64,000 nt of DNA from a virus (Duplodnaviria; Heunggongvirae; Uroviricota; Caudoviricetes): the IMG/VR virus record IMGVR_UViG_3300023174_000099, positions 1 to 64,000 of that record; one strand, given 5' to 3'. Position numbers and translations under genes: made by a program. The number at the start of each line of letters is the position of its first letter. The stretch's first letter is position 1. Of this stretch, positions 410 to 54,142 are shown one piece after another. The notes below the pieces were generated by a model. It was not told where the DNA came from. It made no database searches and saw nothing but the letters and a program-made list of their open reading frames with translations.

Positions 410-1159
410 ATGAAGAAATGGACCTACGAGGAAAACGAGCTTATAACATCAAACAAGGCTAATGGTAAATCCTATGCCGAGATTACTAAATTACTACCTG
501 AGCGCAGCTATACTGCTGTAAGACTTCAAGGCTTTAAATTGCTTGGAGGGATAAACAAGAAAACGCCTTGGACATACAAAGAAGAAGAAGAGCTTCTTAC
601 TTTACGAGGGCTAGACTATACTTACCCTGAAATTGGTGAGTTGATGAATAGAACCAAAGATTCTATAGCTGTCAAAGTTCAAAACCTAGTAAAAGAGGGT
701 AGAACTCAACCGAAACTTCCTAATTCATATACTAAAGAAGAATTAATAGATATAGTTAAACAGTACAAAAAAGTCACACTATGTCCATATGATAAACTAT
801 ATCATATAAAGAAACAATTTGGTAGCTGGACTAATGCAGCAGCAGAGGCCGGTATAGCTTTTAGTGGGCTAGACCCTTCTATAAATACTACACTATATTT
901 ACTGGACTTCGGTAAATTTTATAAGATTGGAATAACTCAGCAAGGTATAAAACATAGATTTTATGGTGTACAGCTAGAGTACCGGGTAGTGGACTTACTA
1001 GACACTACCCTACTAGAAGCTAAGCAGATGGAAAAAGAGGTTCTTAAACATATTATTAAATATTCGTATCGGCCAGAGAAATTAAAAGGTAACGGGTCAA
1101 CGGAGTGCTTTATTCCTCCACGGCCAATTCAAAGCCTGGAGGAAATCTTCGACCTATAA
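410..1159 (+). CDS. T5orf172/MUG113 (GIY-YIG-like) domain protein with N-terminal Myb/SANT-like HTH repeats (paralog 1 of 5)
   Basis: ORF track 374..1159. Start moved to ATG 410 (MKKWTYEE) because of the promoter position. WTxEE..L repeats at N-terminus. C-terminal YLLDFGKFYKIGIT...ECFI motif matches T5orf172. Confidence 0.7.
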   Translation: MKKWTYEENELITSNKANGKSYAEITKLLPERSYTAVRLQGFKLLGGINKKTPWTYKEEEELLTLRGLDYTYPEIGELMNRTKDSIAVKVQNLVKEGRTQPKLPNSYTKEELIDIVKQYKKVTLCPYDKLYHIKKQFGSWTNAAAEAGIAFSGLDPSINTTLYLLDFGKFYKIGITQQGIKHRFYGVQLEYRVVDLLDTTLLEAKQMEKEVLKHIIKYSYRPEKLKGNGSTECFIPPRPIQSLEEIFDL

Positions 1160-1176
1160 AAGCGCGCCTGCGCCAA

Positions 1177-1205
1177 ATTATAGCAGAGTGCGAAACCAAT
1201 GTCAA
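1177..1205 (-). promoter_or_regulatory. Minus-strand sigma70 promoter: TTGACA-17-TATAAT, antisense to the upstream plus-strand gene
   Basis: Reverse complement of 1177-1205 reads TTGACAttggtttcgcactctgcTATAAT. Confidence 0.5.
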
Positions 1206-1248
1206 GCGATTTTTTCAGCTGCCGTCCCACATTACGCGAATTTAAGAG

Positions 1249-1277
1249 TTGACTTTCTCAGCCCGATCCCCTATATT
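1249..1277 (+). promoter_or_regulatory. sigma70 promoter: TTGACT-17-TATATT
   Basis: TTGACT 1249-1254, TATATT 1272-1277. Confidence 0.5.
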
Positions 1278-1339
1278 ATTTATATCGAGAGGGCGGACGA
1301 GCCGATGAGCGCAGACCCCGCCTCTCCCGAAAAAAGTAG

Positions 1340-4360: not shown

Positions 4361-4666
4361 TCAAGCACTATTTTTCCCAGGTTCGGTAGATCTGCGTAGA
4401 ACATTTAGCATCGAAGCTACGGTTCCTACGGAACAATCGAATTGACGGGATAATGCTTTGTTAGATGCTCCTTCATCTTTAAGACGAAGAAGTAGTTCTT
4501 TATCTTCCGTAGACCATTTGCGGTTCTTTTTAAGCCCGAGCTTATAAATCCTTGACTTTACAGCACTCTCGCTCCTGCCGGGCATTCGTACTGTGATCTC
4601 TCTAGCCGTGAAACCCTCCATCCACAGCTTGGAGATTAGTTCTTCTTCAATTTCTGTCCAGCGCAT
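4361..4666 (-). CDS. Myb/SANT-like HTH repeat protein (two WTxEE..L repeats)
   Basis: MRWTEIEEELISKLW... and RKWSTEDKELLLRLKDEG. Confidence 0.55.
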   Translation of the reverse strand: MRWTEIEEELISKLWMEGFTAREITVRMPGRSESAVKSRIYKLGLKKNRKWSTEDKELLLRLKDEGASNKALSRQFDCSVGTVASMLNVLRRSTEPGKNSA

Positions 4667-12823: not shown

Positions 12824-12906
12824 GGCTGGGTAGAGGAGTTTGGTTATCTCGCCGCGCTCATAACGCGGGCTTTTACACGCCGGTTCAAATCCGGCCCCAG
12901 CAACCA
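12824..12906 (+). tRNA. tRNA-like gene, anticodon CAT (Met/initiator-like); irregular (G1-A72 mismatch, 10-nt variable region)
   Basis: T-arm gccggTTCAAATccggc, anticodon stem ccgcg/cgcgg with loop cuCAUaa, 3' CCA. The minus-strand ORF translation here contains the GFEP signature. Confidence 0.4.
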
Positions 12907-13085: not shown

Positions 13086-13128
13086 CTTCTCCCTTGAAGA
13101 AGTCTAGGCAATTAGTTTCAAGGGAACA

Positions 13129-20137: not shown

Positions 20138-20169
20138 GTATTATTTTTGGTCAAGCTATAAAAAAATAC

Positions 20170-20198
20170 TTGACTTTTTAGTTAAATTTAGCTATAAT
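20170..20198 (+). promoter_or_regulatory. sigma70 promoter: TTGACT-17-TATAAT; leaderless-type start
   Basis: aaaaaatacTTGACTttttagttaaatttagcTATAATaaaatATG. Confidence 0.6.
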
Positions 20199-20203
20199 AA
20201 AAT

Positions 20204-20980
20204 ATGGCTGAAAAATGGACAATAGAAGAAGACAACATTATAATAGACTTAAGAAGTCAGGGAATACCTTATAAAGTAATTCATAAGGATCATTTATTTA
20301 ATAGAAGTTTAAGAAGTGTACAAGTAAGGGGCTCCCTATTAATAAATAGGGGTAAAATAAATACTAATAAAAAGTTTAAACAAATATCTTGGACTGACAA
20401 AGAATGTGAAGAGTTAATTAAGTATAAAGTACTAGGATTTTCAACTGCAGAAATATCTAGTAAATTAAAAAAGACGGAGAGTTCTATTGCGAATAAAATA
20501 AGTATACTATCTTCTGGTATATCCAGTAAAAAAGCTTTTATTGAAGAAATAAGGGGTATAGTTAATCAATATAGGACAGAGGAAGAGTACCTATTAAGAT
20601 TTTATCATAGTAGAGATATACCTGAATTAGAAGCATTATTAGATATATTTTCTGATTATGAAGAAGCTAGAGTGATTTTATTAAATGATTCCAGCGTTTC
20701 ATATCTTTACTATGTAAAAATACAATCACTGGATAACAGATACTTCTATAAAATAGGCATAACATCAAAAGATGCTACAAGCAGATTTAAATATGAAAAA
20801 ATAAACTACTTAAAAGTTATAAAAACATGGGAATTTTCTACGTTAAAAGAAGCGAGAGAAAGAGAAAAAGAAATTTTAAGAAAATATAAAGATAAAAGGT
20901 TAACTTCAGATAACGTAATTCTATCAAAGGGTGGAAATACAGAGTTATTCAATGAAGATATCTTGGGTTTGGATGCTTAA
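20204..20980 (+). CDS. T5orf172/MUG113 domain protein with N-terminal Myb/SANT-like repeats (paralog 2)
   Basis: MAEKWTIEEDNII.., SWTDKECEELI..; C-terminal YFYKIGIT...GGNTELF. Confidence 0.7.
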   Translation: MAEKWTIEEDNIIIDLRSQGIPYKVIHKDHLFNRSLRSVQVRGSLLINRGKINTNKKFKQISWTDKECEELIKYKVLGFSTAEISSKLKKTESSIANKISILSSGISSKKAFIEEIRGIVNQYRTEEEYLLRFYHSRDIPELEALLDIFSDYEEARVILLNDSSVSYLYYVKIQSLDNRYFYKIGITSKDATSRFKYEKINYLKVIKTWEFSTLKEAREREKEILRKYKDKRLTSDNVILSKGGNTELFNEDILGLDA

Positions 20981-35447: not shown

Positions 35448-35724
35448 TGAAGAAATCTATTCACGAATAATTCACTGCACTGATGATTTTCAGGTTCGCC
35501 TGACAATCAACAGATTCAGAGGCGTCGAGTACCTTCATGTTAGAAAGTACTTTTTAGACTTCTCTGAGGAGTGGATGCCGTCTAAAGAAGGAGTTGCTAT
35601 GCCACTAGATCTAAATAACTCAAAAGAGCTATTTATCGGCTTAGTTGAAATCTTGTCTTTAGCTGAGTCTAAAGATGTGATAGTATCAAACTTCAAAGAA
35701 CTTTTACAGGATATTTATCAATGA
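35440..35724 (+). CDS. Hypothetical protein
   Basis: ORF track. Confidence 0.4.
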   Translation: MDDEEIYSRIIHCTDDFQVRLTINRFRGVEYLHVRKYFLDFSEEWMPSKEGVAMPLDLNNSKELFIGLVEILSLAESKDVIVSNFKELLQDIYQ

Positions 35725-36665
35725 AGAACTTCCTAGATTATGCGAGTGCCAAATATTACGCGGGTGATCCAATCATCAGCGATGAGGAATTCGATAAGCT
35801 AGCGGAGTACTACGGATATCAAGGCGTGGGGGCTCCAGTCGTTGGCGACAGGATTCCTCACGCCTTTCCTATGTGGAGTCTACAGAAGTGTTATGATGAC
35901 GAACCGCTTATTGATCTAGGTGGCGAAGTGGTTGTAACTCCGAAGCTTGATGGAGCTGCTGTAGCTCTTTACTACGCGGAAGGTAGATTTGTTCTAGCCC
36001 TTACTCGTGGCGACGGTAAGGAGGGTCTAGATATTACAGACAAGATGGCTACTCTAGTTCCAAATGAACTTGAGCACTGGATCAATCCATTCTTGCAAAT
36101 TACAGGTGAGATTGTAGCTCCTAAGACGATTGAGAATGCTCGCAACTATGCTGCTGGCGCTCTGAACCTAAAGTTAGTAGACGAGTTTCAATCTAGGAAC
36201 TTGACCTTTGTTGCTTATGGGGTTACGCCCTTTGTAGATAATGAACATTGGTCTACAGATATGTTGTATCTAAGTATTGAGGGCTTCAATACTGCAACTA
36301 ATAAATCAAAAGACTGGTACGATCAGTTCCCTCAGGATGGCCTAGTGTATAGGCTTAACAAGCACAATGAGTTCCAAGCTCTAGGGTATACTTCCAAGCA
36401 TCCTCGTGGTGCCTTTGCTCTTAAGGAGCGAAAGGGCGGAGTAGTTACTAAACTTCTAGCAGTAGAATGGCAGGTTGGCCGTAGCGGTGTAGTTAGTCCA
36501 GTAGCAATCTTGGAACCCGTTAACATTGGTGGCGCTGTAGTCTCTAGGGCTACACTACACAATGCTAAGTATATCCAAGAACTAAATTTAGAGTTGCATT
36601 GCTTAGTAGAAGTTATACGAGCAGGTGAGATTATTCCTAGAGTTGTAAGGAGAGTATATGAATAA
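35721..36665 (+). CDS. ligA: NAD-dependent DNA ligase, N-terminal part (Ia, adenylation and OB domains); gene is split
   Basis: AKYYAGDPIISDEEFDKL (domain Ia), KLDGAAVALYYAEGRFVLALTRGDGKEGLDIT (KxDG adenylation motif), EGLVYR, RAGEIIPRV at the end of the OB fold. Confidence 0.7.
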   Translation: MKNFLDYASAKYYAGDPIISDEEFDKLAEYYGYQGVGAPVVGDRIPHAFPMWSLQKCYDDEPLIDLGGEVVVTPKLDGAAVALYYAEGRFVLALTRGDGKEGLDITDKMATLVPNELEHWINPFLQITGEIVAPKTIENARNYAAGALNLKLVDEFQSRNLTFVAYGVTPFVDNEHWSTDMLYLSIEGFNTATNKSKDWYDQFPQDGLVYRLNKHNEFQALGYTSKHPRGAFALKERKGGVVTKLLAVEWQVGRSGVVSPVAILEPVNIGGAVVSRATLHNAKYIQELNLELHCLVEVIRAGEIIPRVVRRVYE

Positions 36666-36906
36666 ACTAATTATTTTCTCAGCTTCTTGGTGTAGTCCTT
36701 GTAAGAGACTTAAAAATACTTTAGAGTCTCTAAATGATTACTCGAATATCAAAGTGTATGATATTGATATTAACGTAGAGAAAGCTATAGAATGGAGAGT
36801 GGATGCGGTACCCACTATTATATTAGTGAATGATCAAGGGGAGGAGCTTAAGAGGACACTGGGTGTCTTACCCAAAGAAAAGCTCCTAGAACTTCTAAAT
36901 GCTTAA
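36658..36906 (+). CDS. trx: Thioredoxin
   Basis: WCSPC active site; size 82 aa. Confidence 0.65.
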   Translation: MNKLIIFSASWCSPCKRLKNTLESLNDYSNIKVYDIDINVEKAIEWRVDAVPTIILVNDQGEELKRTLGVLPKEKLLELLNA

Positions 36907-38065
36907 TAAGGCTACTTTAGTAGTAGCTCTACTATTGAGTGCTACCGCCGCATGGTACTCAATATCGGGGCTTACTGCCATATTTGCCGCAGCTATCGTT
37001 CCCATAATTATTATGGGAATAGTATTAGAAACAGCAAAAATAGTTACTAGCCTATGGCTGCATAAATACTGGGATACATGTGGTTGGCAGCTTAAACTAT
37101 ACTTAGTCCCAGCAGTAATAATTCTAGCATTTATTACTAGTATGGGTATTTTTGGATTTCTGTCGAAAGCTCACAGCGACCAAGCTTTAGTATCTAGTAA
37201 TGTATTAGCTAAGCTAGAAGTATTTGATACTAAGCTGGATAACGCGAAAGCTATTATACAATCTAATAGACAGAGCCTAATACAAATGGACGCACAAGTA
37301 GATCAACTACTAGTAAGGTCCGATGACGCTAACGGAGCTATGATAGCAGCTAGGCTGAGAAATAGACAAAAGGCTGAAAGAACTCAGCTGCTAAATAGCA
37401 TATCTAATAACCAAGATACTATTTCTGAAATAAACGAAAAGTCCGCACCTCTTAGAGCCGAAGCTAGACAACTTGAGGCTGAGGTAGGACCAATTAAGTA
37501 TATTGCTGCGCTTATTTACGGCACTGATCTCAATCAAACCATGCTTGAAAGTGCTGTAAGAGCAATCATCATACTACTTGTAGTAGTATTTGACCCACTA
37601 GCCTTAGCCCTTATTATTGCTGCCCAAAAGGCACCAGTAGAGCCAGTAGCAGTTCCTCAGCCTAAAGAGGAAGTAGAGGAAGAAGAAGAGCCTATGAGTA
37701 AGGGAATCTATAATCCTAAGTATTTTGAGAACCATCCAGATGAAGCTAACTTAGACGCAATTCTATATGTAGTAGTTCTAGTAAATCAGACTACTAATTT
37801 ACGAGAATGCGTTAAGATAGGAATTACGAAGGGTCGCAATTGGAAGGATGCTATCAAGAGAGCTGGTGGTTTCAAGGGATACGACATTCGTATTCAGAAG
37901 ATCATTCCGGGTAAACTAGAAGAAATTTATTATCTAGAAGAGTATCTGCATGAACTATGGATCGACCATAGATATCACGGAGCCTCTAAGTTTGGGGGTT
38001 GGACTGAACTATTCTCCATAGATAAACTATCTGAGATTCTAGCAAGTATTCCCCCTAAGCTATAA
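36899..38065 (+). CDS. T5orf172/MUG113 domain protein with N-terminal TM segments and coiled coil (paralog 3), inserted between the two halves of ligA
   Basis: C-terminal LYVVVLVNQTTNLRECVKIGITKGRNWKDAIKR...GGWTELFSI. Confidence 0.65.
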   Translation: MLNKATLVVALLLSATAAWYSISGLTAIFAAAIVPIIIMGIVLETAKIVTSLWLHKYWDTCGWQLKLYLVPAVIILAFITSMGIFGFLSKAHSDQALVSSNVLAKLEVFDTKLDNAKAIIQSNRQSLIQMDAQVDQLLVRSDDANGAMIAARLRNRQKAERTQLLNSISNNQDTISEINEKSAPLRAEARQLEAEVGPIKYIAALIYGTDLNQTMLESAVRAIIILLVVVFDPLALALIIAAQKAPVEPVAVPQPKEEVEEEEEPMSKGIYNPKYFENHPDEANLDAILYVVVLVNQTTNLRECVKIGITKGRNWKDAIKRAGGFKGYDIRIQKIIPGKLEEIYYLEEYLHELWIDHRYHGASKFGGWTELFSIDKLSEILASIPPKL

Positions 38066-38131: not shown

Positions 38132-38884
38132 ATGCAAATAGAAATACCAAACAATTGTCCTTCTTGCAATAGCTCTCTAGCTCTTGTTAATGATATTCTT
38201 TATTGTAAGAATCCAGATTGTGGCTCCATGAGCCGTAAGCGTGTTGAGCATTTTGCCACGACGCTAAAGATTAAAGGTCTAGGACCTTCTTCAATTGAGA
38301 AGTTAGAGTTATCGCATCCTCTCGATATTTATTCCATGAGCCTAGAGGAAATTACAGAGGCTCTTAATTCAGAGAAAGTAGCAACTAAGCTTTTTGATGA
38401 GATTGAGCAATCTAAGTCTAAAAATCTTAACGATCTGCTACCTGCTCTAGGTATTCCACTCATTGGTCAGACAGCCACAGATAAACTTGCAAAAGCCTGT
38501 AAGGCTCTTGAAGAAATTACAGATGAAGTCTGTAAGTCTGCTGGCTTAGGCCCAAAAGCTACTGAAAACCTTCTAACGTGGCTACATGAAAACGACTGGT
38601 ATTTACTATTACCTCAAAACCTAGCTTTTGAAAATACTGTGTCTTCAGGTCAGCAAGTTAAAGGTATTGTCTGTATTACAGGCAAACTAGATAGCTACAA
38701 AACTAAGGCGGAAGCCCAAGTCGAACTAGAACGATTAGGATATGTAGTGAAGTCATCCCTAACGAAAGACGTCACTATTCTAGTAAATGAGAGCGGAAAA
38801 GAAACCGCGAAAACCTCAAAAGCCAGAGACGCTGGCGTTTTGATTGTAGAAAACCTAAGACAATATATAACGGAGAATAATTAA
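38132..38884 (+). CDS. ligA: NAD-dependent DNA ligase, C-terminal part (Zn-finger, HhH, BRCT domains)
   Basis: CPSCNSSL...CKNPDC zinc finger, GLGPSSIEKL HhH, C-terminal BRCT-like KGIVCITGKLDSYKTKAEAQVELERLGYVV. Confidence 0.65.
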   Translation: MQIEIPNNCPSCNSSLALVNDILYCKNPDCGSMSRKRVEHFATTLKIKGLGPSSIEKLELSHPLDIYSMSLEEITEALNSEKVATKLFDEIEQSKSKNLNDLLPALGIPLIGQTATDKLAKACKALEEITDEVCKSAGLGPKATENLLTWLHENDWYLLLPQNLAFENTVSSGQQVKGIVCITGKLDSYKTKAEAQVELERLGYVVKSSLTKDVTILVNESGKETAKTSKARDAGVLIVENLRQYITENN

Positions 38885-38887
38885 TTT

Positions 38888-39604
38888 ATGACTACCCTAA
38901 AGTGGACCGAAGATCGTACTGCCCAGCTAGTAAACGGCGTTGCCGATGAAACCCCTGTTTCACGCGCTACTGTAGCCACCCTAGCCGAAGATCTAGAAAC
39001 AAGTACTCGGTCAATCTCTTCCAAGCTTCGTAAGCTTGGTTACGACGTAGAACTAGCTACAGCAGCCCCAAAGGCATTCTCTGACGAAGTAACAGCAGAA
39101 CTTCGTCAATTTGTTACTGAGAATAGCCGTGAGTTCACATACGCTGAAATCGCTGAGCAGTTCCCCGGTGGCTACACAGCCAAGGCTATTCAGGGCAAGA
39201 TCCTTTCAATGGAACTAACCCAGCACGTTAAGGAAGCTCCAAAGCCAGAGAGCACAAAGACCTACACTGCTGATGAAGAAGCCGTAGTTCTTCGCATGAT
39301 TCGTGCTGGTAACTTCGTTGAAGAAATTTCCGAAGCTGTTGGCAAGAGCGTTCAGTCAGTTCGTGGTAAGGCTCTAAGCCTACAGCGCGCTGGTGAGATC
39401 GACGCTATGCCAAAGCAGCGTGATCTAAAGGGAGCTGCTGCTGATCCACTAGAAGCCATCAGTGATATCGCTAATATGACTGTTGCCCAGATTGCTGAAG
39501 CTATTGGTAAGACCGAGCGTGGTGTTAAGACCATGCTAACGCGTCGTGGTCTAGTAGCTTCTGACTATGATGGTGCAGCTAAGCGTGAGAAAGCTGCTGC
39601 TTAA
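38888..39604 (+). CDS. Protein with four tandem HTH-like modules (paralog family)
   Basis: WTEDRTAQL..., STRSISSKLRKLGYDV, GKSVQSVRGKALSLQRAGEI, GKTERGVKTMLTRRGLV. Confidence 0.5.
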   Translation: MTTLKWTEDRTAQLVNGVADETPVSRATVATLAEDLETSTRSISSKLRKLGYDVELATAAPKAFSDEVTAELRQFVTENSREFTYAEIAEQFPGGYTAKAIQGKILSMELTQHVKEAPKPESTKTYTADEEAVVLRMIRAGNFVEEISEAVGKSVQSVRGKALSLQRAGEIDAMPKQRDLKGAAADPLEAISDIANMTVAQIAEAIGKTERGVKTMLTRRGLVASDYDGAAKREKAAA

Positions 39605-41059: not shown

Positions 41060-41068
41060 GGAATTACT

Positions 41069-44528: not shown

Positions 44529-45036
44529 GTATAGAAATGAGATTCCTTTAAATACTCTGAAGGCGTGGCGAGACCAAGTTCTCGCCACAGCCAACTTCCA
44601 ACCTATTGGCTGGACTGGATTACCTAAGGAACCTTATAGACACTGGGCCGCTTATCCGAAGAATGATGAGCTTTATAAGTCTATATTTGATTGTATGAAT
44701 TATTCTTTCAAGGAAGATGGTTTTAATCTCAAGCCTGAAAGAACAATCGTAAATATGTACAACCACGGAGATAGTTCATGGTTGCATACAGATTCTGAAG
44801 AAGGTATTTGCTGGACTGCTATTCTATTTATGAATGAGTACTGGAACAGCAATTGGGGTGGGGACTTCGTTATGGTAGACTCCGATGGGGAGATACTACA
44901 CGCAGCTGCCCCTACTCCCGGTAAGTTTATTCTATTCCGTGGTGATATTCTTCACGGTGCTAGACCAGTATCTAGAGAAGCCCAGTTCGCCAGAATGGGA
45001 GTTGCGTTTCAGTGTATAAACGATTTGAAGATGTAA
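44503..45036 (+). CDS. 2OG-Fe(II) oxygenase (prolyl 4-hydroxylase-like)
   Basis: HxD...H triad: WLHTDSEE ... ILHGARPV. Confidence 0.55.
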   Translation: MRNSMEYYEYRNEIPLNTLKAWRDQVLATANFQPIGWTGLPKEPYRHWAAYPKNDELYKSIFDCMNYSFKEDGFNLKPERTIVNMYNHGDSSWLHTDSEEGICWTAILFMNEYWNSNWGGDFVMVDSDGEILHAAAPTPGKFILFRGDILHGARPVSREAQFARMGVAFQCINDLKM

Positions 45037-45509
45037 AAAATATACGATTCCCAGTATATCCGCTACCCTCTAATGACTGGTATCGTCAAGATGGAATGTT
45101 ATTTATTAATAATGGAAAAGTCTTAGATGATAAAAATATGCCTGGAGCTAGTCTAGGTGTAAGGCGTTTACAATGCGGAAGAACGGATTTACAAAGCCTA
45201 AGAAGAGCCTATCCAGACTTTTTAAGTATGCTACAAAGTAAGAATAAAATCTTTATAGATAGCAATGGAGTTCCTTTCATATATGAAAGAACTATAAATG
45301 CTCCCCTTATACATCACAGGGTCAAACGAATGGAACAGAAAGAAGGTGTAACAGTTATTCAGCTAGAACGAATAACTTCCTTTTTCTCTGTGCCTAGGCC
45401 TCCCTACGGGGATGCCAGATACGCAAGGGTACTTTATTATAGAGGGTATCCTTGGCTAATTTATGACTTTACGCTCGAAAAGGGCAAGGACTCTTTTAGA
45501 AGAGTATGA
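45012..45509 (+). CDS. Hypothetical protein (165 aa)
   Basis: ORF track. Confidence 0.45.
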   Translation: MYKRFEDVKNIRFPVYPLPSNDWYRQDGMLFINNGKVLDDKNMPGASLGVRRLQCGRTDLQSLRRAYPDFLSMLQSKNKIFIDSNGVPFIYERTINAPLIHHRVKRMEQKEGVTVIQLERITSFFSVPRPPYGDARYARVLYYRGYPWLIYDFTLEKGKDSFRRV

Positions 45510-45515
45510 GTAATC

Positions 45516-46193
45516 ATGGGTAACAGAAAAAGAAGTGGTGCGCCAAAGCAACAAGAATTTCACTTGAAGTACGTGCAGCCACTTACTGATAACCAAGCCC
45601 TAGTGCTTGGTAGTAATAAGAGCCAGGTTCTAATGGGGTACGCCGGTACAGGTAAAACTTTGTTAGCATCTTATTTAGCATATAAAGCTATCTTTGAAGA
45701 TAGAGAGTTTGATAAACTTATCTATATGAGAAGTGCCGTACCAACTAGAAATATTGGATTTCTACCAGGTACGGACAAAGAAAAGATTGCCGTTTATGAA
45801 GCCCCCTATGTCGACACAGCTAATAAGCTGCTGGGTCGAGGTGACGCATACGAAATTCTGAAAGCAAAGGGAGTGGTTCATTTTAGTTCTACTTCGTTTG
45901 TTAGAGGTATTAATCTAGACAATACCATTCTAATCGTTGATGAGTGCCAGAATATGAGCTATCATGAACTAGATTCTATTATTACCCGACTTGAGGAAAA
46001 TTGTAGAGTATATTTCTGCGGTGACATGAGACAGGCCGATCTAGCTAATAATGGACTTAAAGACTTTTTCAAGGTGCTTAAGTCCATGGGCGAATTCGAT
46101 TTCACAGAGTTTCAAAAAGAAGATATTGTCCGCAGTCAATTAGTTAAAAACTATATTATTAAAAAGGAAGAGGTCTTAGGACGTCTTAGCTAA
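45516..46193 (+). CDS. phoH: PhoH-like ATPase
   Basis: Walker A GYAGTGKTLLA, LIVDECQN. Confidence 0.7.
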   Translation: MGNRKRSGAPKQQEFHLKYVQPLTDNQALVLGSNKSQVLMGYAGTGKTLLASYLAYKAIFEDREFDKLIYMRSAVPTRNIGFLPGTDKEKIAVYEAPYVDTANKLLGRGDAYEILKAKGVVHFSSTSFVRGINLDNTILIVDECQNMSYHELDSIITRLEENCRVYFCGDMRQADLANNGLKDFFKVLKSMGEFDFTEFQKEDIVRSQLVKNYIIKKEEVLGRLS

Positions 46194-46224
46194 GAGGGTA
46201 GTACGACTACCTATTTGAGGTTTT

Positions 46225-47529
46225 ATGAAAGCAATTATAAGTAATAAAATCTATATGGTAGTAGAGCCAGCTTTGCATCGGGCATTAGAGAAGGAACTTA
46301 CGTACAAAGTTCCTTCTTACAACGCACCTGATCAATTTACGATTATTAAAAATCTAAAGGTAATCAATTTCAATATCGCCGGAGGAAAGATGCTAGTAGC
46401 CTTTCCAGTTGGTAGAACCGATTTAATTCCTAAAGGTTATTCAGTCGAAGATAAGCGGTCATACAATCAAATAGAAGATTTTCCAAAGTTCCAATTCGAA
46501 CTGAGGCCAAGCCAAAAAGAGATAGTGTACGATATGCAGGATAACTGCATCATCAACGCTAAGGTGGGTTTTGGTAAAACATTCTGCGGGCTTGCTCTTG
46601 CAGCGAGACTAAAAGAGAAAACACTGGTCGTGACACATACTGTTGCCCTTAGAAACCAGTGGGAGAAAGAAGTAGTAAAGACACTAGGTATCAAGCCCGG
46701 TATTATTGGTAGTGGTAAATTTAATATTGATAGCCCAATTGTGGTATCTAATATTCAATCACTAGTTAAATATATACCACAGCTTAATAGGGAGTTTGGT
46801 TTGCTAATCGTGGACGAAATGCACCACGTTAGTAGTCCTACTTTTACCAAAGTAGTGGATGCTATGTTCTCTAGATACAAGGTCGGACTCTCGGGTACAA
46901 TTGAGAGAAAAGATCAGAAGCACGTAGTATTCAAAGATTACTTTGGCTCTAAAATTTATAGACCAGAACGAGAGAATACGATGACACCAACTGTTGATGT
47001 TATCAATAGTGGGGTAGCTTTCTCGAATACTAATGCCTCCTGGGCTGAAAAAGTTAATGTGCTAAAAGAATCATATCTTTATAAGAATCTCGTAGTTCGT
47101 CTAGCAGATCACTATTCCTCTCTAGGACATAAGGTTCTTATTGTATCGGACAGAGTAGAGTTTCTTAAAGAATGTTCTGAGTTATCCGAGTATCCCTCAG
47201 AAGTTCTTATTGGTGCGCTAAAGGAAGATCAAAGAGAAGAAGTCATAAATAAGATTTCCTCTGGTGAAGTAAAGCAACTGTGGTCTACACAGAGCTTAGT
47301 CTCAGAAGGTATTTCTATTAACCCTCTAAGCTGTATTATTCTAGGGACTCCCCTAAATAATATGCCGCTGTTAGAGCAGCTTATAGGTCGTATTCAGCGA
47401 CAGGCAGAGGGTAAGCTCGATCCAGTAGTAGTTGATATTAAACTAGAGGGCTGGACCGTAAATAATCAGTTTAATAACAGGCTTGGGCATTACATGAAAC
47501 AGGGCTATGAAATTAATTTCATAAAATAG
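46225..47529 (+). CDS. SF2 DNA helicase (DEAH box; UvsW/RecG-like)
   Basis: Walker A AKVGFGKTF, DEMHH box, motif VI QLIGRIQRQ. Confidence 0.65.
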   Translation: MKAIISNKIYMVVEPALHRALEKELTYKVPSYNAPDQFTIIKNLKVINFNIAGGKMLVAFPVGRTDLIPKGYSVEDKRSYNQIEDFPKFQFELRPSQKEIVYDMQDNCIINAKVGFGKTFCGLALAARLKEKTLVVTHTVALRNQWEKEVVKTLGIKPGIIGSGKFNIDSPIVVSNIQSLVKYIPQLNREFGLLIVDEMHHVSSPTFTKVVDAMFSRYKVGLSGTIERKDQKHVVFKDYFGSKIYRPERENTMTPTVDVINSGVAFSNTNASWAEKVNVLKESYLYKNLVVRLADHYSSLGHKVLIVSDRVEFLKECSELSEYPSEVLIGALKEDQREEVINKISSGEVKQLWSTQSLVSEGISINPLSCIILGTPLNNMPLLEQLIGRIQRQAEGKLDPVVVDIKLEGWTVNNQFNNRLGHYMKQGYEINFIK

Positions 47530-47530
47530 T

Positions 47531-47559
47531 TCTTGACATGACGCTCAATTTTTGGTAAT
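47531..47559 (+). promoter_or_regulatory. sigma70 promoter: atagttcTTGACA-17-TAATAT
   Basis: TTGACAtgacgctcaatttttggTAATAT. Confidence 0.55.
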
Positions 47560-47605
47560 ATGTTACTCTATAGTTGGAAGAAGATATATAGAAAGTCAGG
47601 AGGTA

Positions 47606-47955
47606 TGTCTTCTAGGATAATACTTATTCTAAAGACAATGCTAAACACGACTATTCCTAAAAACAGATGGGATCCAACTTATAAATACTTTTATGAGGAC
47701 TTCTCCGGGACTAGTTTCCTGATAAATCCTTATGATCTCCTACAAAACAGTTTCCGATGGACAAAAAAAGAAATCGGTGACTATGTAGGATTAGCGAGCT
47801 TTCGTAGCTTAGGGGAATACAGAGCTACAGGAAAGAAAACCTTAGACCTAGCCCATAGCCCCATTGGGATAGACGCTATAAACAAAAACAGACTACTTCG
47901 GGTAGAAAACGGTGAGATCCACTTCTACTACGAAGATTACACAAAGGAGAAATAA
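47606..47955 (+). CDS. Hypothetical protein
   Basis: ORF 47560..47955 trimmed to ATG 47606 after RBS caggaggt. Confidence 0.45.
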
Positions 47956-47956
47956 C

Positions 47957-48598
47957 ATGGCAGGTATCGGTTTTGGTTCAGTTAAGGGTTCAGCAAAGAA
48001 AGAAAAGGCTGACCAGTATAAGTATGTAGACGGCGACAACTCAGTTCGTCTTTTCGGGAATATTCTTCCACGGTACGTCTACTGGATTAAGGGAACCAAT
48101 GGTAAAAACCTACCTTTTGAATGTCTAGAGTTCAATCGTGAAACAGAGTCTTTTGACAAGGCTGAGAAGGATTGGGTAAAGGAATACTTCCCAGACCTTA
48201 AGTGCAGCTGGTCGTATTCTATGATGGGTCTAGACAAAGACAACAAGCCTGTTGTCTTTAACTTCAAGAAAAAGCTATTCGATCAGATCATGTCTAACAT
48301 TGACGATCTTGGCGATCCAACTGATCCAGAAAATGGTTGGGTTCTAAAGTTCAACAAGAAGAAGACTGGTCCCCTACCAATTAACGTAGAGTATACTCTT
48401 CAAACTGTTAAGTGCCTCAATTCAAAGGGTCCACTTAAAGCAGCTGAGGTTGAAGCAATTGCTTCAGCTAAGCCAATCGAAGAAGTTATTCCTCGTGCTA
48501 CACCACAGGCACAAAAGGAGCTTCTAGAGAAGATTGTCAACGGTGACGGAAACGAAAACGTTGATGAAAGCGTTGAAGAAGAACTAAACGCTATCTAA
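47957..48598 (+). CDS. Single-stranded DNA-binding protein (T7 gp2.5-like, acidic C-terminal tail)
   Basis: Start after RBS aaaggagaaataac; acidic tail NVDESVEEELNAI; position in the replication module. Confidence 0.5.
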   Translation: MAGIGFGSVKGSAKKEKADQYKYVDGDNSVRLFGNILPRYVYWIKGTNGKNLPFECLEFNRETESFDKAEKDWVKEYFPDLKCSWSYSMMGLDKDNKPVVFNFKKKLFDQIMSNIDDLGDPTDPENGWVLKFNKKKTGPLPINVEYTLQTVKCLNSKGPLKAAEVEAIASAKPIEEVIPRATPQAQKELLEKIVNGDGNENVDESVEEELNAI

Positions 48599-48602
48599 AA
48601 AG

Positions 48603-48640
48603 TAAGCCCAGGGCGCATAAAGTGTCCTGGGCTTCTTATT
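48603..48640 (+). terminator. Rho-independent terminator: gcccagg...cctgggc + TTCTT
   Basis: Hairpin plus T-rich tail. Confidence 0.55.
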
Positions 48641-48649
48641 CGGAGTATT

Positions 48650-49615
48650 ATGAAAACATTACTAATTGCTGATGTACATATAAAGCTAGGGCAAAAGAAT
48701 GTTCCAAAAGAGTGGGCGTATAACAGATACGAGCTATTCTTTAAACAAGTTGCCGAGGTTGAAAAACAGGTTGATCAAATTATCATTCCCGGAGATATAT
48801 TTGATCGTATGCCTAATCTAGATGAGCTAAAACTTTACTTTAAGTTTATTGCTCAGCGAAAGAAGCGTACAATAATCTCAACGGGAAATCACGAGTCTAC
48901 AAAGAAAGGAAAGAGTTTCTTTACGGAGCTTAAAGAAGTCTCAGAAAGTCTCAATCCTTTAGTAGAAGTGGTAGTAGATTATATATTCAAACACGATGAG
49001 TTTTATGTAGTTCCATATGAATACGTAAAGCACGAAACAACATGGCAAGATCTCGATCCTAGACCAGTGTTTACTCACGTTAGAGCAGAAATACTACCAC
49101 ACGTTAAATCTGAAATTCCACTAGAGTGGCTGGATAAGTTTCCTGTAGTTTTTGCAGGCGACTTACACTCACACTCTAATACTCAGAGAAATATCGTCTA
49201 TCCGGGTAGCCCAATGACTACATCCTTTCACAGGAACGAAGTAGACACTGGATATATCATAATTGATAGTGATAATGATTGGGATTGGACTTGGCATGCC
49301 TTTGATTTACCCCAGCTTATTCGTAAGACGGTATCGTCTCCTGATGAAATGGTTCCAACGGACTTTCATCATACGATCTATGAGTTAGAAGGTAGCATCA
49401 AGGACTTAGCGAAGATAGACAACACTGAGCTTCTGGACAAGAAGATTGTGAAGCGCAAGAGTGATACGGCGCTAGTTCTGGATAAGAAGATGACTATTCC
49501 AGAAGAACTGGCTGAGTACTTGCGATATATTCAAGAGTTACCAGAAGATCAAGTTGAATCTATAATGGGAGTATTTAATGAGTACGGTAGTACTACAATC
49601 AATAGAGTGGGATAA
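48650..49615 (+). CDS. sbcD: SbcD/Mre11-like nuclease
   Basis: Metallophosphoesterase motifs ADVHI, PGDIFD, GNHE. Confidence 0.7.
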   Translation: MKTLLIADVHIKLGQKNVPKEWAYNRYELFFKQVAEVEKQVDQIIIPGDIFDRMPNLDELKLYFKFIAQRKKRTIISTGNHESTKKGKSFFTELKEVSESLNPLVEVVVDYIFKHDEFYVVPYEYVKHETTWQDLDPRPVFTHVRAEILPHVKSEIPLEWLDKFPVVFAGDLHSHSNTQRNIVYPGSPMTTSFHRNEVDTGYIIIDSDNDWDWTWHAFDLPQLIRKTVSSPDEMVPTDFHHTIYELEGSIKDLAKIDNTELLDKKIVKRKSDTALVLDKKMTIPEELAEYLRYIQELPEDQVESIMGVFNEYGSTTINRVG

Positions 49616-51380
49616 GTGCTTTAGCTTTGGCGACAATAATAAAGTCGATCTAAGCAAAGAAGCAGTTACTCAGATTATTGCTCCTAATGGGTTTGGAAAG
49701 TCTTCTATTCCACTTATCATGGAAGAAGCCCTTTATAATAAGAACTCAAAGGGAGCTAAGAAAGCAGACATTCCAAACAGACTATTGGATGGAAGCTACA
49801 ATATTAAACTAGTATTCTCGATTGATAGTCAAGAATACACGGTGGATATCGCTAGAAAAAGTGGTGCCATCAAGATTAAGCTTTCGAATGAAGGCACTGA
49901 TATTAGCAGTCACACAGCTACTAATACATTCAAGCAGATAGAAGAACTTCTTGGAATGGATTTCAAAACATTCCAGCAATTGATTTATCAATCGACAAAT
50001 TCTTCTCTCGCATTTTTGACTGCTACAGACACAGCCCGAAAAAAATTCTTGATCGATCTATTTGACCTCGAAGACTATACGAAGTTGTTTGAGGTTTTTA
50101 AGGAGGCCGCGAAGTCCCTAGGGACGGAAGTGACCTCACTCGACTCTCGAATCGAGACTATCAATAAGTGGCTATCTAATAACTCTAAGCTAGATTTGGA
50201 ATTAAAAGATATTGAGGAATTACCAGAACGACCAGATTTTAGCTCTGAAGTTGGTAATTTGAACTCAAAATTATCTAATATAAAATCTCACAACGATTCG
50301 ATTAAGAAAAATAATACGGTTCGTAAACTTATAGATGCCATTGATATTGAAGAACTTAGAAATGTCAATGTTACGAAAGAATCATACGATGATATTCAGG
50401 GTGACATTGGACAGTTAAAATCTGCAAAGCAATCTGCTGACGCTGTAGTGCAAAAGCTAAAGGGTCTAAAGGATAAGTGTCCTACGTGTCTACAGGACAT
50501 TGATAAAGAATTCTATGATGGTCTACTTAATAGTAATACTACTAACTCTAATGAATATACGGCTCGCATTAAAGAACTAGAAGCAGAGGTAGATCGGATC
50601 AAAAAGAATAATCGTCTTTTTGATATGACTCAGGAACAGATAAAGGAATGGGAGCAACTGAACGCGTCTCTCAATCCCAATCTTAGTTCTAGCTTACTCA
50701 GTGCTTCTGATATTGAAGACGAGCTAGTCGTAATAAAGAATACACTAGCTAAAGTAGACGCCGAAATTTCTAAGGTAACGGCTCTCAACAATGAGGCGCT
50801 AAAGCATAACTCTAAGATAAACGTATATCTAGAGCAGAATGAGAAGTTTTCTGAAGAGCTAAAGGAAGCTAGGGAACAACTAGTATCTTTAACTGACAAG
50901 TATAAAAACTTAGAGGTTCTTAAGAAGGCATTTAGCACTAATGGTCTGATCGCCTATAAGCTAGAGAATCTAGTCAAGGACTTAGAAGTTCATACTAACG
51001 AGTACCTAGCGGAGTTATCGGATGGAAGATTTACAATCGAGTTCTCAATTAGTTCTGACAAACTTAACGTCATTGTCACAGATGAGGGGAAAGAGATCAG
51101 TATCTCTGCTCCATCATCAGGGGAAATGGCAAGAATTAATATTTCTACCTTACTCGCCATCAGAAAGCTCATGTCTAGTATCTCGAAGAATACAATTAAC
51201 GTATTGTTCCTTGACGAAGTCATTAGTGTGCTCGATGACTATGGACGAGAAAGATTAGTAGAAGTCCTACTGCAAGAAGAAGGACTCAATACTTTCCTAG
51301 TCAGTCATGGCTGGCAGCACCCCCTACTTACTAAGTTAATCATAACCAAAAAAGACGGTATAAGCCGTATAGAGACGTAA
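49578..51380 (+). CDS. sbcC: SbcC/Rad50-like ATPase
   Basis: Walker A APNGFGKSS, long coiled coil with CPTC zinc hook, signature/Walker B SGEM...LFLDEV. Confidence 0.7.
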   Translation: MSTVVLQSIEWDKCFSFGDNNKVDLSKEAVTQIIAPNGFGKSSIPLIMEEALYNKNSKGAKKADIPNRLLDGSYNIKLVFSIDSQEYTVDIARKSGAIKIKLSNEGTDISSHTATNTFKQIEELLGMDFKTFQQLIYQSTNSSLAFLTATDTARKKFLIDLFDLEDYTKLFEVFKEAAKSLGTEVTSLDSRIETINKWLSNNSKLDLELKDIEELPERPDFSSEVGNLNSKLSNIKSHNDSIKKNNTVRKLIDAIDIEELRNVNVTKESYDDIQGDIGQLKSAKQSADAVVQKLKGLKDKCPTCLQDIDKEFYDGLLNSNTTNSNEYTARIKELEAEVDRIKKNNRLFDMTQEQIKEWEQLNASLNPNLSSSLLSASDIEDELVVIKNTLAKVDAEISKVTALNNEALKHNSKINVYLEQNEKFSEELKEAREQLVSLTDKYKNLEVLKKAFSTNGLIAYKLENLVKDLEVHTNEYLAELSDGRFTIEFSISSDKLNVIVTDEGKEISISAPSSGEMARINISTLLAIRKLMSSISKNTINVLFLDEVISVLDDYGRERLVEVLLQEEGLNTFLVSHGWQHPLLTKLIITKKDGISRIET

Positions 51381-51381
51381 C

Positions 51382-52167
51382 ATGCCGAAAAGGTGGACAG
51401 ATAAAGAAAAAGAGTTATTAGACAATAACTACTCAGAACTAGGCCCCAAAGGCTGTGCTAAATTATTAGACAGGCCGGAAGACTCTGTTAAAAGTATAGC
51501 CAACAAACGGGGACTTAAATACGATAATAAAAGTACTTGGAAGCCTCATGAGATTGAATTCTTAATAGAAGAACTAAATAATGGAAATACCCATGAGGCC
51601 ATAGGAGTTTTATTAAATAGAACAAAAAGCTCTGTTATGCACAAAGTGCAAAGATTAAGTCTATCTAGTTTAGGCAACTCCTGGGCGCATTTATCTGATA
51701 AAGAATTACTAGAATTAGTAGTAAAGTATAAAACAGCAGAAGAATTCGATAATAACATACATCTACCCAGTTATAAAACAATAGTTAAACGTTTCAAAGT
51801 GTCATGCTGGAACGATGTCAAGGCCTTAGCAGGCCTACCTATACATAAAAATACTGGTAGATACGATTACACTAAAGACGCTGTATTTTATATTCTGGAA
51901 TTTATAGATATAGATGGAACTTTTTTTAAGAAATATGGAGTAACTCAAAGATCTATAGAGCTAAGATATAAAGGAAGAAAAAACTTCAATATAATATATG
52001 AAAAAAGTTTTAGCTTACAAGAATCCCTAGATAAAGAGATAGAACTAGCTGAATCAACTAATAAATATATTCCTAAGGATCCTAAGTTTACTAAAGAGGG
52101 CCACGGTGGTTATACGGAGTGCTTTATAGACTACGCAACTAAGCCTAGCTGGATCGAAAATGATTAA
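51382..52167 (+). CDS. T5orf172/MUG113 domain protein with N-terminal Myb/SANT-like repeats (paralog 4)
   Basis: MPKRWTDKEKELL, WKPHEIEFLIEE; C-terminus ...GGYTECFI. Confidence 0.6.
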   Translation: MPKRWTDKEKELLDNNYSELGPKGCAKLLDRPEDSVKSIANKRGLKYDNKSTWKPHEIEFLIEELNNGNTHEAIGVLLNRTKSSVMHKVQRLSLSSLGNSWAHLSDKELLELVVKYKTAEEFDNNIHLPSYKTIVKRFKVSCWNDVKALAGLPIHKNTGRYDYTKDAVFYILEFIDIDGTFFKKYGVTQRSIELRYKGRKNFNIIYEKSFSLQESLDKEIELAESTNKYIPKDPKFTKEGHGGYTECFIDYATKPSWIEND

Positions 52168-52600
52168 TCCTCGCCAAAAAGGTAAAGTAGGTGAGAAGTT
52201 AGTTAAGGAGTTTCTTGAAAAGGAAACTCCTCATACTTTTGACTATACTCCCGGATCAGGTAGTGGCACTATAAAGGGGGATCTCATGATACCTCAGTAT
52301 AGAAATGTATTCTGCATCGAAGTAAAAAACTATGCAGAGTCTCCCATATCGGATAAGATTCTAACGAGTAAAACAAATGACTTCGTTCAGTGGTGGACTA
52401 AACTACAGAAACAAGCAAAGCCGCTCAGCCCTCTGTTATTCTTTAAGTATAACAGATCAAAGCTATTTGTAAGTACAGACATAAAGCCAGCGAACGTTGA
52501 GAAATATCTTGACATTCCGTGGCTAAACTGCTATATTATGGAAGCTAGTGAATGGATAAAGAAAGAAAATATAACATGGCTACATTTACCCAAGAAGTAA
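52160..52600 (+). CDS. VRR-NUC / PD-(D/E)xK nuclease
   Basis: GDLMIP...CIEVKNY...QWW pattern. Confidence 0.5.
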   Translation: MINPRQKGKVGEKLVKEFLEKETPHTFDYTPGSGSGTIKGDLMIPQYRNVFCIEVKNYAESPISDKILTSKTNDFVQWWTKLQKQAKPLSPLLFFKYNRSKLFVSTDIKPANVEKYLDIPWLNCYIMEASEWIKKENITWLHLPKK

Positions 52601-53418
52601 AACCAGACAGCAACATGATGATTGTTGACTGCATGAACGTTGCCTTTCGCTGGAAGCATTCAGGCGCTAGCAAGTTTGTAGACGAGTATATCGCTACAGT
52701 AATGTCCCTAGCTAAATCCTACAATGCTGGCACTATTATTGCCGCAGCAGACTGGGGTGGTTCCTCTTACCGTAAAACTCTTTTTCCAGAGTACAAAGCT
52801 AATCGCAAGGAACTTGTCGAGAAGCAGACCTCAGAAGAAAAAGAAGCATCTAGAAAGTTTTTTGATGAATATGAAAGAGTACTCGAAGCCCTTGACAAGC
52901 ATCCTCGAATTCAGCTCTTTAGATACCAAGGTGTCGAAGCCGACGATATTGCAGCGTATCTCGTATCTCGGCTACATGACTATGGCTTCGATCAAGCTTG
53001 GCTTATCAGTTCTGATCGTGACTGGGATCTGCTTGTTGGTCCTCATGTATCGCGGTTTTCTACGGTTACTCGGAAAGAAGTAACTCTAGATACTTGGGAT
53101 TATCCTGTGACTCCAGAGCAGTACATTTCCTACAAGGTTCTAATTGGAGATACTTCTGACAATATTCCTGGCATTCCAGGAGTAGGACCAAAGCGTGCTG
53201 CCGCTCTTATTGAAGAATATGGCTCCGCTTTGGACATATATGATGCGTGTCCATTACCCGGCAAACAAAAGTTTATTCAAGCAATAAATGAAAACAAAGA
53301 AACTATACCAACAAATTATGAATTGATGGATCTAGTTTCTTTTTGCCAAGAAGCCGTAGGTCATAATAATATTAATGATATCGGCAGGAGACTAGTATAT
53401 GGCAGCAAGAATAACTGA
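52576..53418 (+). CDS. 5'-3' exonuclease / flap endonuclease (T4 RNaseH-like)
   Basis: MMIVDCMNVAFRW, VEADDIAAYL, GDTSDNIPGIPGVGPKRAAALI (H3TH). Confidence 0.7.
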   Translation: MATFTQEVKPDSNMMIVDCMNVAFRWKHSGASKFVDEYIATVMSLAKSYNAGTIIAAADWGGSSYRKTLFPEYKANRKELVEKQTSEEKEASRKFFDEYERVLEALDKHPRIQLFRYQGVEADDIAAYLVSRLHDYGFDQAWLISSDRDWDLLVGPHVSRFSTVTRKEVTLDTWDYPVTPEQYISYKVLIGDTSDNIPGIPGVGPKRAAALIEEYGSALDIYDACPLPGKQKFIQAINENKETIPTNYELMDLVSFCQEAVGHNNINDIGRRLVYGSKNN

Positions 53419-54142
53419 TGAAGAAATAAACTCTAGACTATCTAACAAAAGGAATAGTGAATACCTGTTAGATGGACCTAGTAAGGGCATAAAAACTAAG
53501 ACAAGAGTTAAACACATTACATGTGGTGACTCATGGGAAGTAATTCCTCATGATGTTATCAGAGGTGTTAGCACTTGTCCAAAATGTGCTGTAGCTAAAA
53601 GGCGTACTATAGAAGAAGCTAACGTACAAATGAATGAGCTAACTTCAGGTGAGTATGAAATTGTAGGAAAATACTCAGGTGTTAAGACAAAAGCAGAAAT
53701 AAGACATAAATCTTGTGGGTATACCTGGGACACCCTACCACACGATATTAATCGTGGCGCTAGTAGATGTTTGAACTGTACTCCAAGTAAGGATTCAGGA
53801 TTTGATAAAACTAAACCCGCTAGTTTATATTTTCTATCTTTTACCGTAGACAGTGAACCCTACTTTAAAATAGGAATTACAAATAGAACAGTAGAAGCTA
53901 GATATTCCAATGAGCCTTATCCCTTTGATATTATTTGGCAGTTGAATTTTGATAAAGGTATTGTAGCATTAGAGCTAGAAAAGCACTTTTTAAATAAGTA
54001 CAAAAGCTATCTAGTTAATACTAAGGCTTTAATATCTGGTAATTATGAAACAATTAGTAAGTTCATAGAACTTAAAGAGGCTACTGAACAAGCCAGTATA
54101 GTTATGGAGAAATTAAATAATGCTAAAAGTAACAAAGCGTGA
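53399..54142 (+). CDS. T5orf172/MUG113 domain protein with two N-terminal zinc-ribbon repeats (paralog 5)
   Basis: CGDSWEV..CPKC and CGYTWDT..CLNC; C-terminal LYFLSFTVDSEPYFKIGIT. Confidence 0.6.
   Translation: MAARITDEEINSRLSNKRNSEYLLDGPSKGIKTKTRVKHITCGDSWEVIPHDVIRGVSTCPKCAVAKRRTIEEANVQMNELTSGEYEIVGKYSGVKTKAEIRHKSCGYTWDTLPHDINRGASRCLNCTPSKDSGFDKTKPASLYFLSFTVDSEPYFKIGITNRTVEARYSNEPYPFDIIWQLNFDKGIVALELEKHFLNKYKSYLVNTKALISGNYETISKFIELKEATEQASIVMEKLNNAKSNKA

Follow-up and report, generated by a model that had tools for sequence, protein, structure and literature searches.

The five open reading frames (ORFs) described here lie in a 64,000-nucleotide (nt) stretch of viral DNA, positions 1 to 64,000 of IMG/VR record IMGVR_UViG_3300023174_000099, which we call the window. 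Its source is an uncultured marine T5-like (Demerecviridae-like) phage, rich in selfish DNA elements. A first-pass annotation had reported five ORFs sharing a C-terminal nuclease module, and all of them were present (410-1159, 20204-20980, 36899-38065, 51382-52167, and 53399-54142; O1 to O5 in window order). The reading that we favor, at a probability of about 0.8, treats O2, O4, and O5 as homing endonuclease genes of the free-standing kind, from the T5orf172/MUG113 branch of GIY-YIG nucleases; O1 looks like an older resident, and O3 is most likely a domesticated or relic form. The basis for homing is domain homology, conserved catalytic-type residues, presence or absence of the genes in near-identical genomes, and a block of DNA transferred with O5; cleavage itself and its target we infer from these.

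When the C-termini were aligned, Y, K-x-G-x-T, R, E, and G..E were invariant in all five proteins. The motif hhY...(Y/F)KIGxT...R...E...GxTExF was found, with Lys-Ile-Gly in place of the canonical Tyr-Ile-Gly, and its Y, K, G, T, R, E, G, and E were also invariant in 80 library homologues. In leave-one-out searches, in which a hidden Markov model (HMM) of the other four modules was run against the 492 ORFs, O1 (E 7e-13), O2 (2e-19), O4 (1.6e-10), and O5 (9e-10) were recovered, and pairwise BLASTP among these four gave E-values of 1e-15 to 1e-3, so their similarity is not due to chance. The profile built without O3 failed to recover O3 from the 492 ORFs, and an HMM of O3's own family matched none of O1, O2, O4, and O5. 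O3 was linked to the others by profile-profile comparison (hhalign 96.6%, E 5.6e-10, motifs all in register), by a match to phrog_681 in the same profile region (E 1e-9), and by its fold. The set therefore consists of four clear paralogues and one remote superfamily member, O3, instead of five equal paralogues.

The module HMM matched no further ORF of the window. A sixth paralogue of 194 amino acids (aa) was found ~5.5 kb upstream of the window start, at L175:2111-2695 (L-numbers denote the related contigs that were compared; L175 is the source contig, which extends upstream of the window). It carries D5/Myb-like repeats and a T5orf172 module (phrog_323 E 9e-17, phrog_681 E 4e-8, module HMM E 1.5e-15). 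The catalytic-type residues, Tyr, Arg, and two Glu, were invariant in O1 to O5 and in this sixth paralogue.

The assignment of the module to T5orf172/MUG113 in the GIY-YIG clan was correct, as its profile neighbours carry those Pfam domains and its fold matches. The direct Pfam search recommended as a check gave a divided answer. O2 scored over the gathering score (MUG113, 23.8 bits; cutoff 22.3), O1 and O5 fell just below it (T5orf172, 19.8 against a cutoff of 20, 0.2 bit short; MUG113, 19.4 against 22.3), and O3 and O4 had no match to T5orf172 (PF10544) or MUG113 (PF13455). A profile of the five modules retrieved 6789 representative proteins at E <= 1e-3 and 1356 at E <= 1e-10, with the module C-terminal in nearly all of the 150 listed. 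Among the best 80 neighbours, 26 carried MUG113 and 23 carried T5orf172, and their N-termini held DUF4379, CapR, and DUF723 zinc fingers. A PF10544 match was precomputed for four of the listed proteins, three of which are 119-123 aa long. The family phrog_681 ('endonuclease') was matched by O1, O2, O3, and O5 (E 3.6e-8, 2e-11, 1e-9, and 4.6e-37). The AlphaFold model of the O3 module (predicted local distance difference test score, pLDDT, 89.8) showed a beta-beta-alpha-beta-alpha core, and Foldseek matched the module fold to the GIY-YIG domains of SLX1, PD-T4-3, I-TevI, and UvrC. Against viral models, 90 matches were obtained at E <= 1e-3, several of them named T5 Orf172, CapR(-homology), or GIY-YIG. 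When the module profile was searched against PDB sequences, nothing significant was obtained, the best GIY-YIG match being 1zg2 at E = 1.

The phage matches T5 in gene content and order (ligA/ligB, D5, DnaB-type helicase, primase, PolA, D12/D13-like SbcCD, D15, NrdAB, and a tRNA block) at ~30-46% protein identity. Megablast with window 36000-56000 found no match among GenBank phages, and relatives were therefore located through protein searches. Related contigs in IMG/VR numbered in the dozens, and in some of them protein identity reached 92-99%; a metagenome contig of 98.7 kb in ENA encodes an identical O1 protein. In the closest relatives, used for the comparison of O2, O4, and O5, the adjoining DNA was about 92-97% identical at the nucleotide level.

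O5 gave the most detailed record of transfer. It was absent from L003 and L004, where 3 bp stand in place of the 711 bp between the D15 stop and the nrdA start (empty junction of L004: ...GTGTTTGGAGCTAAATGATGATTAAAGTAAC...). Orthologs of O5 (64-96% identity; including L189-L192) were always located directly upstream of nrdA, once without D15 upstream. The ortholog in L192 was 96% identical, while the flanking proteins were 80-91% identical. At the nucleotide level, a block of 1.2 kb covering the 3' part of D15 and O5 was 91-97% identical to L192 over a background of 73-86%, and it ended sharply at the nrdA start. When compared with the empty site of L004, the last ~350 nt of D15 dropped to 87% and 76% identity, against 94-97% elsewhere. 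This pattern is what would be expected of homing with one-sided co-conversion. Among 80 D15-centred loci, a module gene stood at the O4 or O5 site in none and between PDDEXK and D15 in two.

O2 and O4 were each delimited by comparison with empty sites. In L095, L096, L097, and L101, with flanks about 97% identical at the nucleotide level, the stretch of the O2 cassette is replaced by a few bases (junction in L095: ...GTATTATTTTAGTTTTGGTTAATTTTTTACTTGACT...). The cassette brings its own promoter, from which O2 appears to be expressed as a leaderless or nearly leaderless early transcript, and the -35 region of this promoter (ACTTGACT) repeats the -35 region of the downstream gene's promoter. The IMG/VR scan with O2 gave one distant C-terminal match.

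In the filled allele of the O4 site, the SbcC/D13-like protein ends in ...GISRIET instead of ...GVSWIENG, and the original SbcC tail is read through by the C-terminus of O4 (...PSWIEND, then stop). A diverged target-gene end together with a read-through tail is a typical footprint of endonuclease gene insertion. O4 was absent from L004 and L020, in which SbcC directly abuts the PDDEXK gene (junction in L004: ...GGTGTAAGCTGGATCGAAAATGGTTAATCC...); the L020 contig ends inside D15, short of the O5 site. At the same position, L003 possessed a different ORF of ~190 bp (MDEQFEIAKK..., L003:3421-3616) flanked by an AAAATGG direct repeat, which suggests that the SbcC/PDDEXK junction may be an insertion hot spot. 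Proteins flanking the O4 and O5 sites were 92-99% identical in L003, L004, and L020. The earlier suggestion of an actively mobile family is thus supported for O2, O4, and O5, each of which has an exact empty site in a near-identical relative, and for O5 by the transferred block as well; it fails for O3, which is vertically inherited as described below.

O1 has the same architecture as O2 and O4 and looks like an older resident. L177 has an ortholog in the corresponding position that is 74% identical to O1, next to a flank of 63% identity, and O1 was absent from L178. Only 7 nt separate the -10 element of its promoter from the ATG at 410, so the mRNA would be leaderless or nearly so and probably an early transcript. 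Scans of IMG/VR gave no relatives for O1, for O4, or for the protein of 151 aa encoded next to O1, and no second genomic context was found in these scans for O1, O2, or O4. Upstream of O1 and downstream of a T5-dNMPase-like region, a non-coding region of 780 bp contains a 28-nt repeat (GCCTTATTGATAATGATTCNCAATAGCA) in three copies, other short repeats, and an 18-nt inverted repeat (L175:7262-7826, that is, the window to ~226 and the DNA upstream). This could be a regulatory or injection-stop-type region.

The N-terminal modules were largely as first described. O1, O2, and O4 each appear to carry two Myb-like three-helix repeats, reported before as Myb/SANT-like, and O5 carries paired zinc ribbons of the CapR/DUF4379 type. 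In O1, O2, and O4, the helix-turn-helix (HTH) repeats are followed by a homing-endonuclease-associated repeat. The family phrog_323 ('D5-like transcriptional regulator') matched the three proteins at profile positions 95-214 with E-values of 1e-11 to 1e-17 (O1, 3e-16; O4, 4.6e-17), and it also matched the phage's own D5-like DNA-binding protein and a separate HTH-only protein. Similarity of O1 to the phage's D5 in BLASTP was weak (30% over 103 aa, E 0.004). Pfam Myb matches of the three N-termini fell below the gathering score, and the matches of O1 to HNH_repeat, T5orf172, and Myb were all marginal; homologues carry precomputed PF00249 and PF13921 matches. The AlphaFold2 model of O1 (pLDDT 88) resembled beads on a string: a pair of three-helix bundles came first, then another helical unit, and then the core of the nuclease. 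The helical unit after the pair is the homing-endonuclease-associated repeat, which contains FGSW..A..AG. The top Foldseek matches were the Myb repeats of CDC5L, c-Myb R2R3, and TvMyb2, with probabilities of 0.99-1.0 and weak E-values (7e-3 to 8e-2). A tblastn search with O1 against 50,697 phage records gave no match, and the O1-type architecture was found in only 10 clusters in the word-indexed protein search. The O5-type architecture, zinc ribbons followed by T5orf172, occurs in 431 GenBank phage records.

We propose that homing by these genes would proceed as follows. The sequence-reading N-terminal module, which would be the tandem Myb/D5-like HTH repeats with the homing-endonuclease-associated repeat in O1, O2, and O4 and the two CapR/DUF4379-type zinc ribbons in O5, would position the C-terminal GIY-YIG-type catalytic domain. 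During co-infection, the gene-less allele of a related phage would be cut close to where two conserved genes meet. The break would then be repaired by recombination with the genome that carries the gene, so that the endonuclease gene is copied along with adjacent flank.

O3 differs from the other four in both of its parts. The transmembrane (TM) segments and coiled coil noted at its N-terminus are present, but this part contains no DNA-binding module and belongs to a separate membrane-protein family, so it cannot be counted among the swapped DNA-binding modules. Its N-terminal 233 aa were 44% identical in tblastn to Pelagibacter phage Mosig_00157, a stand-alone membrane protein, and several jumbo phages possess homologues too; the Mosig homologue has no nuclease module at its end. 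The N-terminus belongs to a phage membrane-protein family of its own and is joined in frame to the nuclease module, and the combination of TM segments, coiled coil, and nuclease is not recurrent among the isolated-phage homologues checked. L084 shares the fusion, and the linkers of the two differ by an indel of a single codon, which leaves the reading frame intact. The ratio of nonsynonymous to synonymous polymorphism (pN/pS) against L084 was 0.10 for the N-terminal part and 0.05 for the C-terminal module, indicating purifying selection on both.

Nearly all relatives, across a marine clade, have the C-terminal module alone, encoded by a gene of its own (118-123 aa) that always lies between ligA and ligB (L085-L092, L179-L187, and others), and the N-terminal part is absent from L085-L092. 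In L092, window 36714-37698, covering most of the thioredoxin gene and the membrane-protein part, is replaced by 199 bp, and the two genomes become alignable again at the internal ATG at 37694, give or take a few bases. Identity of the module tracked that of its neighbours, as in L088 (72% for ligA, 71% for the module, 74% for ligB), indicating vertical inheritance. Being syntenic in many diverged relatives and diverging at about the rate of its flanks, the O3 module does not behave as an actively mobile gene. It represents a separate subfamily with vertical inheritance and is most likely an endonuclease that was domesticated or survives as a relic. It is literally true that O3 sits inside a split ligase gene, but the split is common to T5, Aeromonas phage TS3, and L089, all with an empty gap; the idea that O3 split the ligase in this genome was rejected.

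Other cargo of the ligase gap was exchanged. The thioredoxin gene usually abuts the stand-alone module (L085-L092, L179-L184), and in L092 its product was only 45% identical although the flanks were 89-98% identical; this divergent allele within near-identical flanks indicates the exchange. Some relatives have no recognisable thioredoxin gene beside the module, and a thymidylate synthase gene (thyA) lies further along the gap, downstream. A GIY-YIG-type fold stands beside a thioredoxin-fold partner, as separate genes here and not as a fusion, and a functional link between the two is pure speculation. In an unlikely scenario, the stand-alone module of ~120 aa might descend from an endonuclease that, on inserting, split the NAD-ligase in T5-like phages. 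It would have been domesticated since, losing its DNA-binding domain but retaining, under purifying selection, its catalytic residues. The adjacent thioredoxin gene would point to a redox-linked role, and in this phage the module might be a nuclease tethered to the membrane, for example in superinfection exclusion at the DNA entry site.

Several points weigh against homing. The nuclease activity and the cleavage sites of O1 to O5 are predicted, and the Pfam gathering threshold was passed by O2 only. The better conservation of O1 than of its flank in L177 is more in keeping with a resident gene of use to the phage than with a selfish element. Presence and absence of O2 and O4 could in principle have arisen by precise deletions instead of insertions; for these two, no ortholog was found in a second genome context. 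O1 and O2 have strong early-type promoters of their own, which together with D5-like repeats would also suit regulators.

The last point leads to the alternative that the proteins, O1, O2, and O4 especially, are sequence-specific DNA-binding regulators of the D5-like or domesticated CapR kind, with a module that no longer serves homing. Their N-termini match phrog_323 as the phage's own D5 does, with BLASTP similarity to D5 at E 0.004, the promoters at O1 and O2 are of the sigma-70 type, and O1 is kept at the same site in a diverged relative. Viral database names read 'T5 Orf172 DNA-binding domain', and CapR is a published domesticated relative (PMC10448857). However, the catalytic-type Tyr, Arg, and two Glu did not vary among the five proteins and the sixth paralogue, the closest relatives do without O2 and O4, whereas a core regulator would be expected to be kept, and the duplicated, diverged target-gene end in the O4 cassette is typical of endonuclease gene insertion. 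We regard a purely regulatory role as unlikely.

Alternatively, the proteins could be weapons against competitors like Odn of ICP1, that is, nucleases with borrowed specificity directed at host DNA, at satellites, or at phages infecting the same cell. Odn joins a T5orf172 nuclease to a DNA-binding domain captured from the RepA of its target (PMC8263062), and in the present phage its own D5 is what the DNA-binding domains in O1, O2, and O4 look like. The two roles overlap, as cutting gene-less alleles also excludes the markers of a competitor. On the other hand, PADLOC and NCBIfam gave no match for any of the five proteins, leaving a role in known defence systems unsupported, and a satellite or target element was not in evidence. 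The transfer of the O5 block and the site-specific tie of O5 to the 5' end of nrdA are predictions of homing, and we therefore consider a dedicated weapon quite improbable. The idea that the C-terminal motif is a chance similarity or a non-enzymatic structural domain, with presence and absence due to ordinary accessory-gene deletions, can draw on Pfam scores near or under threshold and on the insignificant sequence search of solved structures, but it is in practice refuted by the leave-one-out searches (E 1e-10 to 1e-19), thousands of homologues sharing the architecture, confident fold models matching GIY-YIG and T5orf172 structures, and the O5 identity block.

With homing as the preferred reading, the genes clearly exemplify a type of element already described and leave the picture of phage homing endonucleases unchanged. 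The family is not uncharacterised, as had been supposed, since published work covers homing endonuclease genes with T5orf172, how they are enriched in T5-like phages and bind DNA through modular domains, and the nuclease activity of Odn/Gp88 (PMC10448857, PMC8263062). T5orf172 is a subfamily of GIY-YIG, and Odn/Gp88 of ICP1 cleaves DNA, its catalytic mutant being E180A at the conserved glutamate (Barth et al. 2021; PMC8263062). Enrichment of T5orf172 homing endonuclease genes was seen in ICP1, in T5-like phages, and in others; they cluster beside ribonucleotide reductase (RNR), terminase, and replisome genes, have modular DNA-binding domains that are mostly zinc fingers, and mark boundaries of genetic exchange (PMC10448857). 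The genes of Barth et al. 2023 (ICP1, T5-like, Plateaulake-like, and VpaJT-like phages; PMC10448857) likewise carry T5orf172 at the C-terminus in several copies per genome, and they share with the present set RNR and replisome neighbours, exchange boundaries, and modular DNA binding, the CapR/DUF723/DUF4379-type repeats of O5 being the canonical architecture. They differ in that O1, O2, and O4 use Myb/D5-like HTH repeats with the homing-endonuclease-associated repeat and lack the zinc fingers found in 87% of that data set (PMC10448857). The present phage also belongs to a diverged uncultured marine lineage, with ligA about 45% identical to that of T5. Odn resembles our proteins in a T5orf172 domain with conserved Arg and Glu and in a DNA-binding domain related to a protein of the system (RepA_N there, D5 here), but it targets a satellite replication origin and does not home (PMC8263062), and the similarity to D5 here is weak (E 0.004).

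What is less ordinary here is the Myb/D5-like HTH architecture, the resident of the ligase gap, and the membrane-protein fusion. SegA to SegG are free-standing GIY-YIG homing endonucleases of T4-like phages. Insertion of MobE, an HNH enzyme, reportedly created the split nrdA of Aeromonas phage Aeh1 (Friedrich et al. 2007). Both resemble the present genes in intergenic insertion among nucleotide metabolism and replication genes, co-conversion of flanks, and patchy distribution in close relatives, whereas the GIY-YIG subfamily here is another one (KIG, not YIG, in the second motif) and the DNA-binding modules are different. Like MobE, the O3 module lies between the halves of a split essential gene, but the gene in the ligase gap is without a DNA-binding domain and vertically inherited, and the gap is empty in T5 and TS3.

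Direct cleavage data were found for only one member of the subfamily, Odn. Exact filled and empty sites for three genes, with a co-conversion tract for one of them, are concrete substrates for biochemistry. The stand-alone gene in the ligase gap bears on the origin of 'genes in pieces' and on the domestication of selfish nucleases.

Table 1. Positions in the window of the five genes, their parts, and associated features.
Feature	Position	Strand	Description
O1	410..1159	+	T5orf172-type nuclease module gene; mechanical ORF from 374, ATG at 410
O1 parts	410-544, 563-700; 722-853; 857-1156		HTH repeats; homing-endonuclease-associated repeat; nuclease module
O1 promoter	374..402	+	sigma-70-like; TTGACA, 17 nt, TATTAT, with TG; 11/12 matches in promoter scan
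HTH-only protein	4361-4666	-	101 aa; matches phrog_323
O2 cassette	20148..20973	+	826 bp, bounded by comparison with empty sites; holds own promoter and O2
O2 promoter	20170-20175; 20193-20198	+	-35 TTGACT; -10 TATAAT; 5 nt to ATG
O2 gene	20204-20980	+	two HTH repeats, middle helical repeat, nuclease module 20681-20977
ligA	35721..36665	+	NAD-ligase adenylation and OB domains (Pfam); left flank of O3 island
Thioredoxin gene	36658..36906	+	Pfam Thioredoxin E 5e-13; gap cargo immediately upstream of O3
O3 N-terminal part	36899..37693	+	four predicted TM segments, coiled coil, acidic/proline linker 37619-37693
O3 C-terminal part	37694..38065	+	T5orf172-like module, a gene of its own in relatives; first residues MSKGIYN; GAGGAAGAA precedes the internal ATG
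ligB	38132..38884	+	HhH part of NAD-ligase; Pfam HHH_2 below gathering score; 40% identical to T5 ligB; right flank
D5-like DNA-binding protein	38888..39604	+	the phage's own; phrog_323 E 1.7e-39
O4 cassette	51308..52146	+	diverged replacement of last 73 nt of SbcC/D13-like gene (to 51380) and O4
O4 gene	51382-52167	+	two HTH repeats, middle repeat, nuclease module 51844-52164
Putative co-conversion tract	~52910..54110	+	D15 3' part and O5; 1.2-kb block
O5	53399..54142	+	between flap endonuclease D15 and nrdA, overlapping both
O5 parts	53504-53596, 53690-53785; 53786-54139		zinc ribbons (CxxC...CxxC, CapR/DUF4379-type); T5orf172/MUG113 module

Other mobile elements were present in the window. 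A canonical GIY-YIG homing endonuclease gene was found at 13129-13800 (Pfam GIY-YIG E 1.2e-6, phrog_7168 E 2e-24), and the stretch 12828-13792 was absent from relatives L095 and L101. Two genes for HNH endonucleases, one HNH_4/EndoVII-like and one HNH_3, lie at 23165-23884 and 27728-28306; a stretch of 933 bp holding the former gene is replaced by ~245 bp in L095-L097 and L101. The gene for DNA polymerase A (41889-43634 and 43968-44528) is split by a group I intron without an ORF (43603-43958; Rfam RF00028, 76.7 bits, gathering score 50), and in the closest relative, L084, the two parts of the polymerase gene are contiguous and in frame.

The window also encodes a permuted two-piece transfer-messenger RNA (tmRNA) at 21457-21721 (RF04321 83.6 bits, alpha_tmRNA 68.7 bits; ARAGORN tag ANDNVAFALAA), overlapping a mechanical ORF on the minus strand (21449-21811). 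This tmRNA may hint at an alphaproteobacterial-type host.

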